From contig CAKOPK010000003.1 of the NCBI GenBank assembly GCA_934099115.1, positions 24,409 through 88,408 on the forward strand: 64,000 nucleotides of DNA. Direction: 5' to 3'. Shown one piece after another: positions 22,880 through 58,903 of the stretch. This DNA comes from an uncultured Bacilli bacterium. Its GTDB lineage: Bacteria > Bacillota_I > Bacilli_A > RF39 > UBA660. The first letter of the stretch is position 1; each line of letters opens with the position of its first letter. Made by a program: the position numbers and the translations under genes. The notes below the pieces were generated by a model. The model was not told where the DNA came from. It searched no databases and worked only from the letters and a program-made list of their open reading frames with translations.

Positions 22880-24940
22880 CTATAAAGGCTCATAAAATAT
22901 AAATTTTTCATTTGTTTTTTTAATAATCATATGAATCGTTCCCTTTTCCTGTGTATTATAAACTTTTATTTTATTGGCATTTAAAACTTTCAAAGTTTCT
23001 TTAGCCGGATGATTATAGCGATTATTTCGACCTGCGGATATAATAGCATACTTAGGCTTTATTGCCTTTATAAAATCATTATCTGTACTTGTTTTAGAGC
23101 CATGATGTCCTACTTTAATAACATCTACTTTTGGAAGCTTTTTCTCTACTATTTTTTCTATACTTTTTGGTGCATCTCCCATAAAAAGCCAATTTTTATT
23201 TAAAAAAGTTACTAATAAAACCAATGAGCTTTCATTTTCATCAGCGCTTGTTCTTAAATTTAAGTTCTTAATTACTATTTTTTTCCCTAGATAATTATTT
23301 TTTATATGTTTATCTATTTTCTTAGATAATTTATATTCCTCTTGATTTAATCTGTTATTATTAAGCATAATACTTTTAAATTTAAGTTTTTCTACTAACT
23401 TTTTACTATAACCTATATGGTCTGTATCCCCATGTGTAACAATTAGCAAATCTATCTTAGTTATTCCTAAACTCTTAAAAAATTGCACTAAAGTATCCCC
23501 TAAATCATAATTTGCATTTTTCTTTTGCCAATCTTCTTTACTGTATTCTATTTTCCCTCCAGTATCAATCATTATAGTATCCTTTTGATAAGGACTAACT
23601 ATAAAAGAAGCATCACCTTGACCGACATCTAAATAATATATGTGATAAGAATTATCAAGTAGTGGTACTATCTTTTGCCAGATTATAAAAGCTATCAATA
23701 AATAAAGCATTTTGAAGCCATATTTATAATAACAATAAAAGATAAAATAATAAATAATCATAAATAGTAAATTACCTTTAGGAACTACAAGATTAATTGC
23801 CAGTGTATTTAATATAAAATTAAGTTTTTCTAATACTAAAAAGCCTAAATTTAAAGCAGGTTCTAAAAAAGAAAATACAAACGTTAACAAAGTAAAAGGA
23901 AACAAAATTAAACTAACAAATGGCACTATAATTAAATTATTAAAAACCGTCAATAAATTAATTTCATAAAAATTCATTAAAGTCACAGGAGCACTTGCTA
24001 AAAAAGCTATAAAGCTTGTTTTTAATAGCTTTTTAAAATAATTACCAGTTATCTTATTAGAATATATAATTAAGCTAAAAGAAGTCAAAAAAGAATATAA
24101 AAAACCTAAATCTTCTATATAAAAAGGATTTAATAAAATAAGAGAGAAAAACAAATAATAAACTACTAAGAGATTATTAATGTTTAGCTTACTCTTTTTA
24201 TTAAAATAAAGTACAATATAAAATAGACTAGCTCTTACAACTGAAGCACTAAAGCCAATCAAAAACATATAGAAAATCAAGAATACAATTATAATTCCTT
24301 TGTTTTTAATACCTATTTTTTTTAAAATATTATCGAATATCATAATTAAAAAACTTATATGCATTCCCGAAACTGCAAACAAATGAGTAATTCCATTCGC
24401 CTGATAAACTTTATAAACATTGCTATCGATATAACTATTCTTTCCTAAAATAAATGCATAAAAATAATCTGGTTTTTTAAAAGCATTTACTCTCCTTACC
24501 AATTTGTTTTTAATAATATATAGAATAGAAGTACTTTTCTTTGTTATTTCCATTTTAGTAGCATTCATAACCCAATATATCTTTTTTCCATATAAATATT
24601 TTTGATAATTAAAAGTATTAGGTATAGTATTTTTAAGTGGTCTTTGAAGGGTTCCATCTATTTTTATAGTATCTCCTAATTCTAAACAATAGTCATTCTT
24701 TTCTTTTTCTGTTTTAAAATAATAATTTACCATTATCTTTTCTTTGTTCTTAAGCATCAAGGATAATTTATCTCCATCAATTTTATAATCAATAATAACT
24801 CCCTCAATAGAACTTGATTCCTCACTCCAAATGGAAGTATACTTAACAATTTTTAGATTATAAAAAACATAACAAATTAAGCAAAAAAGACTAATAATTA
24901 TAAAAATCTTAGACTGTAATAAACTCTTTAATTTTTTCAA
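22880..24940 (-). CDS. comEC: DNA internalization competence protein ComEC/Rec2
   Basis: 686 aa. Polytopic competence domain plus a C-terminal metallo-beta-lactamase domain (VTHGDTDHIG, VGHHGS). Confidence 0.9.
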   Translation of the reverse strand: MKKLKSLLQSKIFIIISLFCLICYVFYNLKIVKYTSIWSEESSSIEGVIIDYKIDGDKLSLMLKNKEKIMVNYYFKTEKEKNDYCLELGDTIKIDGTLQRPLKNTIPNTFNYQKYLYGKKIYWVMNATKMEITKKSTSILYIIKNKLVRRVNAFKKPDYFYAFILGKNSYIDSNVYKVYQANGITHLFAVSGMHISFLIMIFDNILKKIGIKNKGIIIVFLIFYMFLIGFSASVVRASLFYIVLYFNKKSKLNINNLLVVYYLFFSLILLNPFYIEDLGFLYSFLTSFSLIIYSNKITGNYFKKLLKTSFIAFLASAPVTLMNFYEINLLTVFNNLIIVPFVSLILFPFTLLTFVFSFLEPALNLGFLVLEKLNFILNTLAINLVVPKGNLLFMIIYYFIFYCYYKYGFKMLYLLIAFIIWQKIVPLLDNSYHIYYLDVGQGDASFIVSPYQKDTIMIDTGGKIEYSKEDWQKKNANYDLGDTLVQFFKSLGITKIDLLIVTHGDTDHIGYSKKLVEKLKFKSIMLNNNRLNQEEYKLSKKIDKHIKNNYLGKKIVIKNLNLRTSADENESSLVLLVTFLNKNWLFMGDAPKSIEKIVEKKLPKVDVIKVGHHGSKTSTDNDFIKAIKPKYAIISAGRNNRYNHPAKETLKVLNANKIKVYNTQEKGTIHMIIKKTNEKFIFYEPL

Positions 24941-48787: not shown

Positions 48788-48810
48788 TTAAAAATAGTCC
48801 GAAGACTATT
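48788..48810 (-). terminator. intrinsic terminator of infC-rpmI-rplT
   Basis: Minus strand AATAGTC-TTCG-GACTATT followed by TTTAATTT. Overlaps the rplT stop. Confidence 0.55.
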
Positions 48811-48925
48811 TTAAATTACCGATTAATTCATCTTTTTTCATTGTAGAATAACCCTTAACGCCTTGTTCTTTAGCAATAGCTTTAAGTTCTGTTAAAGTCA
48901 TTTTACTATAATCTTTTTCTTCTTT
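48806..48925 (-). repeat. copy A of the shared rplT/rpsB 3'-end module
   Basis: A 96-nt core (about 48827-48922) differs at 4 positions from about 57953-58048. Confidence 0.85.
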
Positions 48926-49342
48926 TTTAGCAGTTTCTTTTTTTTCTACTTTTACTTCTTTTTTAACTTCAGTTTTAACAGTTTTTCCATCTAAAGCAGC
49001 TTTTGAAACAACTACTAATTCTGTAAATGCAGCTGGATTATCAATTGCAAGTTCACTTAACATCTTACGATTAATTTCAATACCAGCTTTAGATAAACCA
49101 TTCATAAATTTAGAATAACTGATCTCATTTGCTCTACAAGCAGCATTAATTCTTGTTATCCATAATTTTCTGAAGTTTCTCTTATTTGCTTTTCTATCTC
49201 TATAAGCATAAGCTCCACTATGGAATAATTGTTCTTGAGCTGTCTTATATAATCTATGTTTACTACCAAAGTAACCTTTAGCTTCTTTTAATACTTTTCT
49301 GCGACGATTTTTAGACACAGAACCACCTTTAACTCTTGTCAT
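48806..49342 (-). CDS. rplT: 50S ribosomal protein L20 with a roughly 60-aa C-terminal extension
   Basis: L20 core ([26 protein letters not shown]...) followed by a K/E-rich linker and ...[36 protein letters not shown]. Confidence 0.9.
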
Positions 49343-51009: not shown

Positions 51010-51204
51010 TTATTCTACAATTTCTTCACTATAAATAGGCTTTTTTTCTAATTCTTTTTGATACAACTCTTCTTTAATATCATTTTTAAGTGCATTTAAA
51101 AATGTTTGTTTGTAATTATTAATCATCAATACTGATAACATCATAACAATAAATACTAAAAAGAAAGAATATACCAAATACATGGATGCAAACCCTTTTT
51201 TCAT
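51010..51204 (-). CDS. hypothetical 64-aa single-pass membrane protein
   Basis: MKKGFASMYLVYSFFLVFIVMMLSVLMINNY then an acidic/basic tail. GGTGAGG SD. Own promoter-like TGATATAAT at 51230-51222. Confidence 0.45.
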   Translation of the reverse strand: MKKGFASMYLVYSFFLVFIVMMLSVLMINNYKQTFLNALKNDIKEELYQKELEKKPIYSEEIVE

Positions 51205-51230: not shown

Positions 51231-51255
51231 GAAAAAAAGAGCTTGGGGAACTCTT
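51231..51255 (-). terminator. intrinsic terminator of the peptide/exporter operon
   Basis: Minus strand AGAGTT-CCCC-AA(G)CTCT followed by TTTTTTT, starting 2 nt after the P3 stop. Confidence 0.55.
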
Positions 51256-51256
51256 T

Positions 51257-51412
51257 TTAACAATATTTTTTCTTTGAAAATAATCTTCGAATAGAAGAAC
51301 CTACCATTTTACCTACACTTATTGTAAGAGAAAGAAATCTAGAAACAGAATTTAACATATTACTTGACATTCCTCCTTTGATTTCTAGTAGGGTTATATT
51401 ATTTAGTTGCAT
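51257..51412 (-). CDS. double-glycine-leader peptide P3 (51 aa)
   Basis: Not in ORF track. MQLNNITLLEIKGG | MSSNMLNSVSRFLSLTISVGKMVGSSIRRLFSKKKYC. ATG 51412 is 9 nt after the P2 stop, with AGGA 7 nt upstream. Confidence 0.6.
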   Translation of the reverse strand: MQLNNITLLEIKGGMSSNMLNSVSRFLSLTISVGKMVGSSIRRLFSKKKYC

Positions 51413-51421
51413 ACTTAAATC

Positions 51422-51553
51422 CTAACATTTGTCTGGATAGATTATTCCATATATAACGGAAGCTACAAACACAGTTGCTACTCCAATTAATCCCCAAATA
51501 GTACTTTTAAATCCTCCAGATATTGTTAACAATTCTTCTTGCTTTAGTACCAT
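51422..51553 (-). CDS. double-glycine-leader peptide P2 (43 aa)
   Basis: Not in ORF track. MVLKQEELLTISGG | FKSTIWGLIGVATVFVASVIYGIIYPDKC. AAAAGGAGA SD lies 6 nt before the ATG. Confidence 0.65.
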   Translation of the reverse strand: MVLKQEELLTISGGFKSTIWGLIGVATVFVASVIYGIIYPDKC

Positions 51554-51657
51554 AAGCGTCTCCTTTTTACTAATCTGCCTAATAAACTAATAAAGCTTAG
51601 CCATATAGAGCAACCACCTTCTATTTCTAGAAGTTTCAAATTACTTAATTTTTCCAT
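51544..51657 (-). CDS. double-glycine-leader peptide P1 (37 aa; alternative start 51675 adds MKGKRR)
   Basis: Not in ORF track. MEKLSNLKLLEIEGG | CSIWLSFISLLGRLVKRRRLWY. Its 3' end overlaps the P2 start by 10 nt. Confidence 0.6.
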   Translation of the reverse strand: MEKLSNLKLLEIEGGCSIWLSFISLLGRLVKRRRLWY

Positions 51658-51792
51658 TCTTCTCTTCCCTTTCATCAAAATGCTCTTATTATCTTTAAAC
51701 CAATATAAATTTCTAATAATAAAATAATTAAAATAAATAGTAGTCTACTAAGATAAAATTTTGGTCTTTGTTTTAGAAAAGCTATCTTATTG

Positions 51793-53847
51793 TTATATAC
51801 TTGAAACATTTTCTCCTCCTAGCTCAAATATTTTATCAAACTCACTGGATACATCTTTGTGCGATACATAAATTAAAGTTTTATCCGAAAAATATTTTTT
51901 AACATTTTTAATAATAGTTTTCTCCATTTCAATATTTACCTCGCTTAAAGCTTCATCTAAAATCAAAATTTTGCAATTCTTTAATAATGCTCTTGCTAAG
52001 ATTATTCGTTGTTTTTCTCCTCCACTCAAGTTATTAATGGAAGCATTAATATACGTTTGATATCTATTTTTCTTCTTAGATATGATGTTTTCTAATTCAC
52101 AAATTTTAGCAACTTTTAAAAATTCTATTTCATCAATATTTCTATCGCATATTATGTTTTCTAATATAGTTCCAGAAAATATTTTTTCATTTTGGCTTAC
52201 ATATGTAATATTATTTCTAATTGAATTTAAGCTATAATCTTGTTCACTCGTACTGCCTATTCTTATTATTCCTCTATAATTATTTTCTTGATAGCTTATT
52301 AACTTACATATAGTTGATTTACCGGTACCACTAGGGCCCATTAATAAAACCTTTTCTTGACTATTAATTTTCAAATTTAAATCTTCTAAAATATTATTAA
52401 AATGATTATAGGAAAAAGTTAAGTTTTCTATGAGTATGGAGTTATTTTCTATTTGGTCTAAGCCAGTGTTTAAATCTTCTCTAGGAATATTTATAAAATC
52501 TTTAAGTTTATTAAAAGACGCCTTTAAATAATCAATTCTTGGTAATAAATCAAGAAGTTCTTTGATAGGATTTATTAAATATAATAAAACGCTATTAAAG
52601 GTAATCAAACTTAATAAATCAAGTTTATTAATAGATACTAGATAAATTCCTGCACTAGTTATTAAAAAAGTTCCTATTTCATAAATAACATTTTTTACAC
52701 ATTCTAAATTTTCAATCATAATATTTAATTTTAAATTGCTCTTCAACATGAGAATTAATTTATTTTCAATTCTATTAAGAAAATTATCAGTTAAGCCTAA
52801 ATTTTTAATACTTGTATTCATTTCTATAGTCTCTATTAAGCCAGTATTAAAATCTGTAGAAGTTTCAATGTTTTCTTTTATTTTTCTTTTTAAGAATATA
52901 TTGATTATTAAGTTGTATGAAATAAGAAAAATAATCATGAGTAGAAGCACTAAAAATAATTTGTTGCTTATCCAAAATAAAACCAAACTAGAGCCAATAA
53001 TCAAAATCGAATTTAGAATAATTGTTGTGAATATTTCTCCAATAAGATTTTTTATCTCATTAAGCTCATTAATTCTTGAAACAATTTCTCCTGTCGAACG
53101 ATTCTGAATAAAATTTAAAGGAAGACTTAATATATGAGCTAAAAATTCTGAAAATATCGTTACATCTATATTTTTATTTAAATAAATTAAATTATAGTTC
53201 TTAAGATGAACAAATAAAACTTTTAAAATCATCAAGCCTAGAAAGAATAATATTATGTTTTTTAAAATTGAACTTTGTATTTTCATTAAAGCAACTTGGA
53301 AATAAAAACTTGAAAATATAGTGATGAATGTAATAAAAATATTCATCCAACATATTTGAAAAAATTGTTTTTTGTTTTTTGTTATAAGTTCTAAGAGTAA
53401 AGTAAGTATATTTATATTATTTTCATAAAAAGGTATTTTAGTTACTGGTGTGAATATTAGTATGATATTATCCCAAGCTTCACAAAATTCTTTTTTAGAA
53501 ACTTTTATTTTCCCTCTAGCTGGGTCCATAATCCAAACATATTTCTTAGTTATTTTATATACAACTACAAAATGATTAAGACCATTTTTTAAAACTACAT
53601 GCGCGATTGCTGGTAAGTATATGTTTTCATCATCTATGCTATCTGCTTTCATTCCTATAGCTTCAAAGCCATAATTTTTAGCAGCATTTATTAAATGAAA
53701 TGCAGTTGTTCCAAAATTGGTTGTATTGGTGTCTTCTCTTATTTTTTCAAGCGGAACATAACCTCCATAATATTTAATAATGCATAGTAGAGAACAAGCT
53801 CCACAATCTTTTAAATCTTGTTGTAAAACATTTTCTATTTTTGCCAT
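51793..53847 (-). CDS. peptidase-C39-domain ABC transporter (bacteriocin/peptide-pheromone exporter type)
   Basis: 684 aa. N-terminal C39 domain (QQDLKDCGACSL catalytic Cys context; NHFVVVY...MDPARG His/Asp context), 6-TM domain, Walker A GPSGTGKST, LSGGEKQR, ILILDEA. GGGAGG SD. Confidence 0.9.
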   Translation of the reverse strand: MAKIENVLQQDLKDCGACSLLCIIKYYGGYVPLEKIREDTNTTNFGTTAFHLINAAKNYGFEAIGMKADSIDDENIYLPAIAHVVLKNGLNHFVVVYKITKKYVWIMDPARGKIKVSKKEFCEAWDNIILIFTPVTKIPFYENNINILTLLLELITKNKKQFFQICWMNIFITFITIFSSFYFQVALMKIQSSILKNIILFFLGLMILKVLFVHLKNYNLIYLNKNIDVTIFSEFLAHILSLPLNFIQNRSTGEIVSRINELNEIKNLIGEIFTTIILNSILIIGSSLVLFWISNKLFLVLLLMIIFLISYNLIINIFLKRKIKENIETSTDFNTGLIETIEMNTSIKNLGLTDNFLNRIENKLILMLKSNLKLNIMIENLECVKNVIYEIGTFLITSAGIYLVSINKLDLLSLITFNSVLLYLINPIKELLDLLPRIDYLKASFNKLKDFINIPREDLNTGLDQIENNSILIENLTFSYNHFNNILEDLNLKINSQEKVLLMGPSGTGKSTICKLISYQENNYRGIIRIGSTSEQDYSLNSIRNNITYVSQNEKIFSGTILENIICDRNIDEIEFLKVAKICELENIISKKKNRYQTYINASINNLSGGEKQRIILARALLKNCKILILDEALSEVNIEMEKTIIKNVKKYFSDKTLIYVSHKDVSSEFDKIFELGGENVSSI

Positions 53848-53968
53848 CTATTATGCCTCCCTTCGTTATAATTAATACATATTTTTTAGCGAAAGTCCAG
53901 GGATTTGGCCGCTTTGGTTAATATCTTATTTATGGAAGACATACATCGACAAATTTTGCACTTTTTTT

Positions 53969-54457
53969 ATGTATAATAGCCAATCAAAAAGAAAGGAAGA
54001 GATAAATTTGACAGGACTTGAAATAGCTACTAAAAGAATCAATTCTAACTTAACTATAAAAGAAATGGCCAGAATTTTAAATATTAGTATAAGTAAATAT
54101 AAAATGGTAGAAAGCAAAAATATGCCTTTAAAGCTAGACGAAATAAATTCTTTTTGTAATACTTTTAATATTTCTCTAGATACATTTTTTGGTTTAAATA
54201 AAAAGAAAAAACAAGATAATATTTATCAAAATATAAATTATTCTTATCTAAAATTTAGTTTAAAATATTATAGAAAGATGGCTCGAATTAGTCAAAAAGG
54301 CTTAGCAAATATCCTCGGATTCTCTGTATCTACAATTTCTTTATACGAAAGAAATGCCCATAAAGCAAGCAGTATATATATATATTTATTTGCTAATTAC
54401 TTTCATGTTTCTATAGATTATATGTGTGGCAAAAGTTTACAAAAATTTTTATATTAA
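53969..54457 (+). CDS. transcriptional regulator with two tandem XRE-type HTH domains
   Basis: HTH 1 is LTIKEMARILNISISKYKMVESKN and HTH 2 is ISQKGLANILGFSVSTISLYERNA. Each is followed by a ...SLDTFFG / SIDYMCG helix. The real start may be TTG 54008 (GGAAGAG SD), with TATAAT at 53972-53977 acting as the -10. Confidence 0.75.
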   Translation: MYNSQSKRKEEINLTGLEIATKRINSNLTIKEMARILNISISKYKMVESKNMPLKLDEINSFCNTFNISLDTFFGLNKKKKQDNIYQNINYSYLKFSLKYYRKMARISQKGLANILGFSVSTISLYERNAHKASSIYIYLFANYFHVSIDYMCGKSLQKFLY

Positions 54458-57931: not shown

Positions 57932-58050
57932 TTACTTTAAATTTGTAATAATTTCATCTTTTTTCATTGTAGAATAACCTTTAACTCCTTGTTCCTTAGC
58001 AATAGTTTTAAGTTCTGTTAAAGTCATTTTACTATAATCTTTTTCTTCTA
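57932..58050 (-). repeat. copy B of the shared rplT/rpsB 3'-end module
   Basis: See copy A. 92 of 96 nt are identical by eye. Confidence 0.85.
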
Positions 58051-58903
58051 CTTTTTCTTCTTTTTCTACAACTTTTAGAGTCTCTTTTCTTTCTCCACGT
58101 TTATCATTTTTCTTAAATGATTTTCTTTCAGTTTTCTCAGTTTTATCAACGATAGGTTCTTTAATTACTTCATCCATAGTTTTTACTTTTTTATCTTCTT
58201 CAGTAACATAATCAACCATCTCTAATCCATGAGCTTCACAAATAGCATTATTTAAAACACCTAATAATACTTTAACGCTTCTTACTGCATCATCATTTCC
58301 TGGAATAACAAAATCAACATCATCAGGGTCACAATTTGTATCAACTACTCCAAATACTGGAATATTTAATCTTCTTGCTTCTCTAATAGCATTAATTTCT
58401 TTCTTAGGATCAACAATAATTAAAGCATTAGGTAATTTGTTCATTTCTCGAATACCTGATAAAATCTTATTTAATTTTTCATATTCTTTCTTTAAACCAA
58501 TTACTTCTTTTTTAGGTAAAACATCAAATTTACCATCTTTTTCCATATTTTCAATTTCTTCAAGTCTCTTAACTCTTCTTCTGATTGTACGGAAATTAGT
58601 TAAAGTTCCACCTAACCAACGTTCAGTAACGTAGTAAGAATTACTTCTTTCAGCTTCTTCTCTAGCAGCTTCTCCTGCTTGTTTTTTAGTCCCTACAAAT
58701 AAGAAAGTTCCACCATTATCAGCAATAGCTTTTACCTCAGCGTAAGCTTCCTCTAATTTTTTTGTAGTTTTTTCAAGATCGATAATATAAATATCTTCTC
58801 TAGTACCAAAAATGTACTCTTTCATTTTAGGATTCCATCTTTTAGTTTGATGTCCAAAATGAACTCCTGCTTCTAATAAATAACTCATAGAAACAACGGC
58901 CAT
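57932..58903 (-). CDS. rpsB: 30S ribosomal protein S2 with a roughly 85-aa C-terminal extension
   Basis: S2 core ([19 protein letters not shown]...) then a K/E-rich linker and ...[36 protein letters not shown]. Confidence 0.95.

Follow-up and report, generated by a model that had tools for sequence, protein, structure and literature searches.

A stretch of 64,000 nucleotides from contig CAKOPK010000003.1 of an uncultured Bacilli bacterium (assembly GCA_934099115.1, forward-strand positions 24,409 to 88,408; the window hereafter) carries an ATP-binding cassette (ABC) exporter gene followed by three small tandem genes, P1, P2 and P3, whose products begin with double-glycine (GG) leaders. We propose that P2 and P3 on balance probably make up a two-peptide bacteriocin of the class IIb type, that P1 would be a third exported peptide, and that all three would be processed and secreted by the locus's own peptidase-containing ABC transporter (PCAT). 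The system is of a known kind; its new details are the P3 family, a small membrane partner of the exporter, and paired cysteines in P2 and P3. The window is also contained in metagenome contig ENA ERZ27287262 k141_160784. The features of the locus are as follows.

51793..53847, minus strand: exporter (PCAT, 684 amino acids [aa]), from Pfam domains and alignment to PCAT1 and ComA.
51675..51809, minus strand: open reading frame (ORF) for a 44-aa single-pass membrane protein; its start overlaps the exporter stop.
51544..51657, minus strand: P1 prepeptide, 37 aa, with a 15-aa GG leader and a 22-aa core.
51422..51553, minus strand: P2 prepeptide, 43 aa, with a 14-aa GG leader and a 29-aa core.
51257..51412, minus strand: P3 prepeptide, 51 aa, with a 14-aa GG leader and a 37-aa core.
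About 51231..51258, minus strand: A/U-rich hairpin and U-tract, a probable intrinsic terminator, overlapping the P3 stop codon.
51010..51204, minus strand: 64-aa single-pass membrane protein, after the terminator.
53848..54007, minus strand: putative control region between exporter and regulator, from an eight-locus alignment.
54008..54457, plus strand: XRE-type regulator of 149 aa with two helix-turn-helix (HTH) domains, from Pfam matches to HTH_3 (twice) and HTH_19.

A sequence-only reading of the window had described the three peptide genes, and their coordinates and sequences were all found as it gave them. So was their packing: P1 and P2 overlap by 10 nucleotides, within P1 there is a strong AAAGGAG Shine-Dalgarno sequence that serves P2, and P3 starts 9 nucleotides past the P2 stop. 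The mechanical P1 ORF begins at TTG 51678; ATG 51657 is the likely start, because the orthologues all begin with MEK or MQR. The intrinsic terminator placed after P3 was also recovered, as a hairpin of -10.4 kcal/mol (z = -3.64 by RNA folding; 1 of 200 shuffles folded equally well). A consensus terminator scan made no call there because the hairpin has fewer than three G-C pairs. The exporter and the three GG prepeptide genes lie in one predicted transcription unit, in and near which an Rfam search returned no RNA elements. The word unannotated, applied by the earlier reading to all three genes, needs qualification: public gene predictors call P2 and P3, always without a name, and it is the 37-aa P1 that is not in the collection. 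Two ORFs had been overlooked, the 44-aa ORF (51809-51675) and the conserved 64-aa membrane protein (51204-51010), and these are likewise called and likewise nameless.

Related contigs were gathered through the exporter, and a search with a 136-aa membrane protein from these loci as query gave four additional loci. A scan of a genome collection with the exporter returned solely distant ABC transporters at 21-30% identity, and a scan of a viral contig collection with the short peptides gave zero matches. The gene order recurs in over 12 diverged loci of uncultured Bacillota, and the peptide genes there retain their reading frames, GG sites and stops, at peptide identities of only 30-55% in the close lineages; this was the conservation check that the earlier reading had proposed. 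Nucleotide differences among 11 loci are most frequent at third codon positions, less so at first and least at second positions in all three peptides, and in the close pair L026/L030 (L numbers designate related loci) the ratios of synonymous to nonsynonymous changes are 5:1 for P1, 9:2 for P2 and 13:1 for P3. P1, P2 and P3 are protein-coding genes under purifying selection, and we are confident that they are real genes for GG peptides with predicted export.

Double-glycine leaders are 14-25 residues long, end in GG (or GA/GS) and have hydrophobic residues at -4, -7 and -12, the spacing that C39 peptidase domains recognise. All three window peptides have leaders of this form: position -4 is Ile, and positions -7 and -12 are both Leu. 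A leader expression applied to every ATG-initiated ORF of 30-80 aa in the six frames of the 64 kb found exactly P1, P2 and P3, and the mean in shuffled sequence (n=50) was 0.04. As the expression was written with the peptides already known, 3 versus 0.04 shows uniqueness in the window and is not an independent test. Three P2 orthologues pass the TIGR01847 (bacteriocin_sig) cut-off of 15.7 bits, with scores of 16.7-21.7; the window P1, P2 and P3 score below it.

The exporter has a complete set of C39 catalytic residues. It matches Peptidase_C39 (1.3e-36), ABC_membrane (1.1e-27) and ABC_tran (2.2e-28), has a six-helix membrane domain, and aligns over its full length with PCAT1 (4RY2; 3.7e-97) and ComA (7.8e-84). 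Absence of the C39 catalytic Cys and His had been named as a result that would count against the earlier reading; in the alignment, Gln9, Cys15, His92 and Asp108 coincide with the residues of PCAT1 that we take to be catalytic, and the four also align with ComA. The ATPase motifs are also intact (Walker A at 504, signature at 607, Walker B at 627, H-loop His at 663). With this catalytic set and these ABC domains and motifs, the exporter falls among the PCATs, or ABC-transporter maturation and secretion (AMS) exporters. The closest NCBIfam models are TIGR01193, NHLM_micro_ABC1 and the Mbov_0121 family, and the exporter misses all NCBIfam equivalog and subfamily cut-offs (372 versus 524 bits for TIGR01193, 311 versus 500 for the Mbov_0121 family). 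At 50-62% identity it has over 100 relatives, every one from an uncultured bacterium. PCAT1 with CtA of Clostridium thermocellum and ComA with ComC of Streptococcus have the same three-domain architecture and the same catalytic Cys/His/Asp and oxyanion Gln, and among PDB entries the P3 profile comes closest to the CtA leader peptide, at a non-significant E = 0.66. Unlike those systems, the cassettes studied here encode a single-pass protein of about 136 aa and of no known family instead of a ComB/HlyD-type partner. The adjacent exporter is most likely the protein that cuts and exports the three peptides.

The family relations of P2 point to what the exported cargo may be. P2, MVLKQEELLTISGG/FKSTIWGLIGVATVFVASVIYGIIYPDKC (leader/core), has a hydrophobic core with a grand average of hydropathicity of 1.18 that contains an SxxxG motif and ends in ...ASVIYGIIYPDKC with a single C-terminal Cys. 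P2 is kept in every cassette examined, the distant ones included. Close homologues are 43-47 aa long, and the copies of close lineages are 42-53% identical to that of the window; among orthologues S32-x3-G36 is nearly invariant or invariant, and the tail ...YGxIxP(N/D)(K/R)C is conserved. On TIGR03949, the class IIb model for lactobin A and cerein 7B (cut-off 21.5 bits), P2 orthologues score 18.1-28.5 bits, 6 of 10 passing at 21.8-28.5, and these matches span leader and core. Because orthologues reach this cut-off, the bacteriocin reading is strengthened, and the multi-peptide class II bacteriocin that the sequence-only reading had considered gains support; at the family level P2 would belong to a bacteriocin family. 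On Bacteriocin_IIc (PF10439) the window P2 missed the gathering threshold, with 15.3 versus 27.1 bits, and a comparison of mature P2 and P3 with solved bacteriocin structures found no similarity.

P3, MQLNNITLLEIKGG/MSSNMLNSVSRFLSLTISVGKMVGSSIRRLFSKKKYC (leader/core), has a 37-aa cationic amphipathic core of net charge +7 with the sequence VGKMVGSSIRR, in which lies a GxxxG motif, and a C-terminal ...KYC. It too is kept in every cassette; close homologues are 47-52 aa long, and those of close lineages are 38-50% identical to the window copy. An AlphaFold2 model built with 81 sequences predicts a short helix in the leader (5-13) and a single long one through the core (15-49), with a mean predicted local distance difference test score of 72, and G34, G38, R42 and C51 are invariant in the 81 sequences. 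A profile search of 1.84 billion representative proteins, clustered at 50% identity in a library that carries no names, returned 479 clusters with E <= 1e-3, of which 235 have E <= 1e-10. Family members share a signature composed of GG, about 20 residues, G-[RKQ]-x-[IVL]-G-S-[SA]-I-R-R, 5-6 residues, and [YIVF]-C, and a Cys follows the motif in 113 of 114 motif-bearing representatives. In a word-indexed search, made with a concatenated P2 and P3 profile since a single P3 sequence found only itself there, every match was named hypothetical protein at most. Matches of the 81 sequences to bacteriocin models are sub-threshold, weak and leader-driven: 37 to TIGR03949 (best E = 5.4e-5), 33 to lactococcin G-beta and 12 to Bacteriocin_IIc (best E = 0.0023). 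Some members have equally sub-threshold, leader-level matches to ComC. P3 is, as far as profiles can tell, the founder of a large unnamed family in uncultured Firmicutes. Literature searches covering the motif, disulfide-linked two-peptide bacteriocins and genome mining for PCATs turned up no description of the family. It enlarges the repertoire of exported double-glycine peptides by 479 clusters, all from Firmicutes that cannot be screened by culture. In the clade of L031 (4559-4841) and L034 (4392-4674), P3 stops right after the SSIRR motif.

Known two-peptide bacteriocins permeabilise target membranes, and their helices pair through GxxxG motifs. In every cassette found, P2 and P3 are two unlike peptides encoded side by side, and small-xxx-small motifs occur in both, as S32-x3-G36 in P2 and G34-x3-G38 in P3. 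P2 resembles the lactobin A/cerein 7B family in its GG leader, in its small hydrophobic core rich in Gly, Ala and Ser, and in having another, unlike GG peptide and a C39 ABC exporter encoded next to it; it departs from that family in its ...YGxIxP(N/D)(K/R)C tail, in having P3 as partner, in coming without a recognisable immunity gene and, in the window, in scoring below the family cut-off. Lactococcin G, enterocin 1071 and plantaricins EF and JK likewise consist of two adjacent, unlike GG peptides with GxxxG-type motifs, one of them a cationic amphipathic helix. Unlike these bacteriocins, P2 and P3 each end in a single conserved Cys; further, the matches to NF038034 and NF038035 are sub-threshold and leader-driven, and the mature parts have no sequence similarity to those of this group.

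The related loci separate P2 and P3 from P1. In close lineages the order is a divergent two-HTH regulator, the exporter, a membrane protein of about 136 aa that begins within the end of the exporter gene, P1, P2, P3, a membrane protein of 59-70 aa, rpsU and yqeY. Four distant cassettes (L028, L037, L039, L041), partly from spore formers and with SpoIIIAH, YabP and YqfD genes nearby, encode exporters only 37-50% identical to that of the window. They keep the exporter, P2 and P3, and usually a membrane protein of about 137 aa; they have neither P1 nor the 64-70-aa protein, and L041 is additionally without the membrane protein of about 136 aa. Because the distant cassettes keep the exporter, P2 and P3 but not P1, P2 and P3 are an ancient pair. 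The conserved core is, on this comparison, the exporter with P2 and P3, usually accompanied by the membrane protein of about 136 aa, and P1 is a lineage-specific, fast-evolving addition. The set of three peptides described at first thus stands in that all are GG-leader genes, but its members are unequal. Beyond P3 in L041 (4775-5757) come two paralogous soluble proteins of about 150 aa and of no known family, then rpsU.

P1, MEKLSNLKLLEIEGG/CSIWLSFISLLGRLVKRRRLWY (leader/core), has orthologues of 40-43 aa at the same position in 10 close lineages, 27-36% identical to the window copy. Their leader is conserved, and their core is variable and always hydrophobic with a basic C-terminus. The window core CSIWLSFISLLGRLVKRRRLWY is cationic (net charge +5) and 22 aa long versus 27-28 aa in orthologues, and its leader is without the Cys at -4 present in most of them. 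In size and charge P1 resembles the short cationic GG peptides encoded beside two-peptide pairs at the plantaricin A and ABP-118 induction peptide loci. Unlike those loci, the window has P1 between exporter and structural genes and no histidine kinase or response regulator within 6 kb; these two proteins define the three-component systems of induction peptides.

The cassette evolves much faster than its surroundings. Between the window and close lineages, ribosome recycling factor and the AI-2E permease are 80-84% identical and ribosomal protein S21 87-93%, versus 53-57% for the exporter and 38-44% for the regulator; the G+C content is 24.5% in the cassette versus 27.8% in the flanks. As exporter and peptides diverge far more than the flanks, the cassette is a fast-evolving island at a fixed chromosomal site. 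Such rates suit a competition locus and, more generally, loci shaped by diversifying selection (those for bacteriocins or pherotypes, for example); they do not fit a horizontally mobile island. Sequences identical to the window P2 and P3 were found on 18-23 contigs from several samples, so the window form is established in the population. With its fixed site and rapid evolution, the cassette offers a natural series for studying the co-evolution of exporter, leader and cargo. In one lineage (L021:1379-3843, L022:1356-3843) an insertion that encodes a second two-HTH regulator and a 466-aa protein without a Pfam match separates the cassette's own regulator from the AI-2E permease or its equivalent.

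Mature P2 and P3 normally have one Cys each, at or beside the C-terminus. Thirteen distinct lineages have the two together (the window, L018, L022, L024, L026/L030, L029, L032, L033, L028, L037, L039, L041 and the fused gene call P0301), and both are missing in L031 and L034/35, where P2 ends in ...PKES or ...PKEG and P3 in ...RLIK or ...RLIN. In P0175, another fused gene call, both have shifted, into the P2 equivalent of SxxxG (GIFCG) and the P3 GxxxG (IGCQIG), which might place the two small-xxx-small motifs side by side. No lineage among those compared has a discordant P2/P3 pair. This co-occurrence is the pattern expected of an intermolecular P2-P3 disulfide, and hints at one. To our knowledge, known class IIb pairs associate non-covalently and a disulfide-linked two-peptide form has not been described for the class; the paired cysteines offer a simple idea of how two-peptide bacteriocins could be locked together. 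A more specific proposal, which we hold only tentatively, is that P2 and P3 are secreted as, or come together in, a disulfide-joined, covalent heterodimer bacteriocin. Its genes would belong to an ancient, rapidly diversifying cassette that keeps its place beside rpsU across a large clade of uncultured Bacillota, and in which the exporter has a new small membrane protein as partner and not one of the ComB/HlyD type. Separately, in the gene calls P0175 (94 aa) and P0301 (101 aa) one ORF runs through both a P2-like and a P3-like prepeptide, and a GG site is found in either half; they are either true fusions or the result of a missed stop codon.

Two small membrane proteins flank the peptide genes. 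The 44-aa ORF aligns to residues 1-41, comprising the N-terminus and membrane helix, and to the last residues of proteins of 135-139 aa. Because it matches both ends, it apparently results from an in-frame deletion of an outer domain of about 92 aa that kept the spacing to P1. The full-length form of about 136 aa occurs in nearly all related cassettes (L017-L039; for example L018:6051-6461) and gave no Pfam or PDB match; the idea that it is a miniature HlyD/ComB-type accessory found no support in Pfam or PDB profiles. Many of these proteins have a conserved C-x3-C pair just outside the helix, for example GYVTCENVCYV (L022:6054-6461, L024:5630-6040, L026:5549-5959, L029:5551-5961, L031:4001-4411); the pair is missing in L018, L028, L037 and L039 and is not correlated with the peptide cysteines. 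The 64-aa protein follows P3 in all close lineages and in none of the four distant cassettes. It has a very conserved N-terminus, MKKGFASMY.VYS, a second motif, NNYK..FL..LKNDIKE, and a TATAAT about 15 nucleotides upstream of its start. It matched no family in the libraries searched, nor did the suggestion that it is ComGG- or pseudopilin-like find any family match. We regard it as a candidate for an immunity or associated function, with an uncertain connection to the cassette.

Upstream, the regulator runs from TTG 54008, with ATG 53969 as an alternative start. It matches HTH_3 twice (E = 1.8e-14) and HTH_19, and its relatives of 149-162 aa contain two HTH_3/HTH_19 domains only. Every close syntenic locus has it in divergent orientation, with only 38-44% identity between lineages. 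In the alignment of the intergenic region from 8 loci, TTGTCGA (about 53952-53946) is invariant and has an A/T-rich -10-like element alongside. The exporter Shine-Dalgarno sequence of the window is GAAGGGAGG, the aligned loci have the ribosome-binding site GAAGGGAG in common, and a TATAAT-like box on the opposite strand, TATAATAG, faces the regulator gene. We infer that the divergent promoters are under control of the XRE protein. In L037 (1085-1783) the divergent regulator is a 232-aa sigma-70-family protein (Sigma70_r2/r4) and not a two-HTH XRE protein.

If P2 and P3 are a class IIb pair, the cassette might work as follows. Transcription would start from the conserved promoter facing the divergent two-HTH XRE regulator. 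The C39 domain would bind the leaders through the hydrophobic residues at -4, -7 and -12 and cut after Gly15 of P1, Gly14 of P2 and Gly14 of P3, and the transporter part would export the cores. In the target membrane the hydrophobic P2 core, with SxxxG, and the cationic helical P3 core, with GxxxG, would pack helix to helix and make the membrane permeable; a disulfide that connects the one C-terminal cysteine of each may link the two. P1 would be the third export product, whether an extra antimicrobial, a helper peptide or an inducer. Protection of the producer could rest with the exporter-coupled membrane protein, only 44 aa long in the window, with the downstream 64-aa membrane protein, or with both. 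The predicted average masses of the reduced cores are 2766.4 Da for P1, 3161.8 Da for P2 and 4157.0 Da for P3, with about 7316.8 Da for a P2-P3 disulfide dimer, and the core sequences are ready candidates for synthesis.

Several findings weigh against a bacteriocin. The window P2 itself scores 15.9 bits on TIGR03949, below the cut-off, and searches of family libraries placed neither P1 nor P3 in a curated family above threshold. A clear immunity gene was not found: the candidates, the 44-aa or roughly 136-aa protein and the 64-aa protein, match no family, and the minimal cassettes L028, L037, L039 and L041 have no recognisable one, L041 having neither candidate. The exporter-coupled membrane protein is shortened to 44 aa in the window, and the 64-aa protein lies after the terminator and is better conserved than the peptides (second-codon-position differences of 0.15 versus 0.21-0.33). 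Across deep lineages the cassette sits at a fixed site beside rpsU, which is more core-like than expected of a strain-variable bacteriocin island: rpsU lies downstream in three of the four distant cassettes, directly in L037 and L041 and beyond a pyruvate-kinase gene in L028, and L039 has different neighbours. Finally, the joint loss of the cysteines amounts to only one or two evolutionary events, and the cysteine pairing is for that reason a lead and not a result.

Because of the missing immunity gene and the core-like position, two alternatives stay alive, each of which we consider unlikely. The first is that the peptides are quorum-sensing pheromones, secreted through the PCAT and sensed by the producers, with the XRE regulator controlling the response; the sequence-only reading had left the layout open between a bacteriocin and signalling. 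Some members match the ComC, BlpC, EntF-induction-factor and VP1 models weakly, P1 has the size and charge of induction peptides, and fast divergence at a fixed locus recalls pherotype diversification. The model matches, however, cover the leader only, whereas the class IIb matches of P2 reach into the core, and P2 is hydrophobic and membrane-spanning, unlike pheromones. Further, within 6 kb on either side no sensor kinase or response regulator gene (HisKA, HATPase_c-kinase, Response_reg, LytTR) is on record, and the 149-aa two-HTH regulator is without the tetratricopeptide repeat (TPR)-like peptide-binding domain of RRNPP-type receptors (Rgg/PlcR/PrgX). Of the two possibilities offered at first, the bacteriocin is the better supported, signalling being without an adjacent kinase, response regulator or RRNPP-type receptor.

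The second alternative, about as improbable, gives the exported P2 and P3 a physiological role in the producer, in its envelope, membrane, biofilm or development. GG peptides that are not antibiotics have a precedent: GG-motif small proteins are reported to control biofilm formation in Synechococcus (PMC4997328). Such a role would suit vertical inheritance upstream of rpsU-yqeY among exporters only 37-57% identical, in lineages that include spore formers with yabP and yqfD nearby, and it would suit minimal cassettes without an immunity gene. On the other hand, the housekeeping genes around the cassette change far more slowly than it does, an unusual situation for a core physiological function; P2 falls at the family level in a bacteriocin family; and GxxxG-type motifs in a cationic and a hydrophobic helix are traits of membrane-active two-peptide bacteriocins.

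Less probable again is that the cassette, functional in relatives, is decaying and non-working in the window genome. The cut of the membrane protein from about 136 to 44 aa, the shorter P1 core and the lost leader Cys at -4 would agree with decay. Yet the exporter, P1, P2 and P3 are intact and have their starts, catalytic residues and ribosome-binding sites; the deletion preserved both the frame and the spacing to P1; identical P2 and P3 are found on 18-23 contigs from several samples; and L041, without the membrane protein, still keeps the exporter, P2 and P3. That the three ORFs are chance frames, as short ORFs that abound in AT-rich intergenic DNA (27% G+C) might be, is refuted almost beyond doubt by the ortholog, codon and family data: over 12 diverged loci preserve the frames, the GG sites and the stops, with an excess of synonymous changes; the leader pattern occurs three times versus 0.04 expected; and the P3 family has 479 clusters.

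Elsewhere in the window, the products of rpsB (57932-58903, minus strand) and rplT (48806-49342, minus strand), ribosomal proteins S2 and L20, end in a near-identical tail of about 38 aa that closes with [IL]I[TG]NLK. The tail is recorded as a Rho_N (SAP-like) domain, and both fusions also occur in related lineages.

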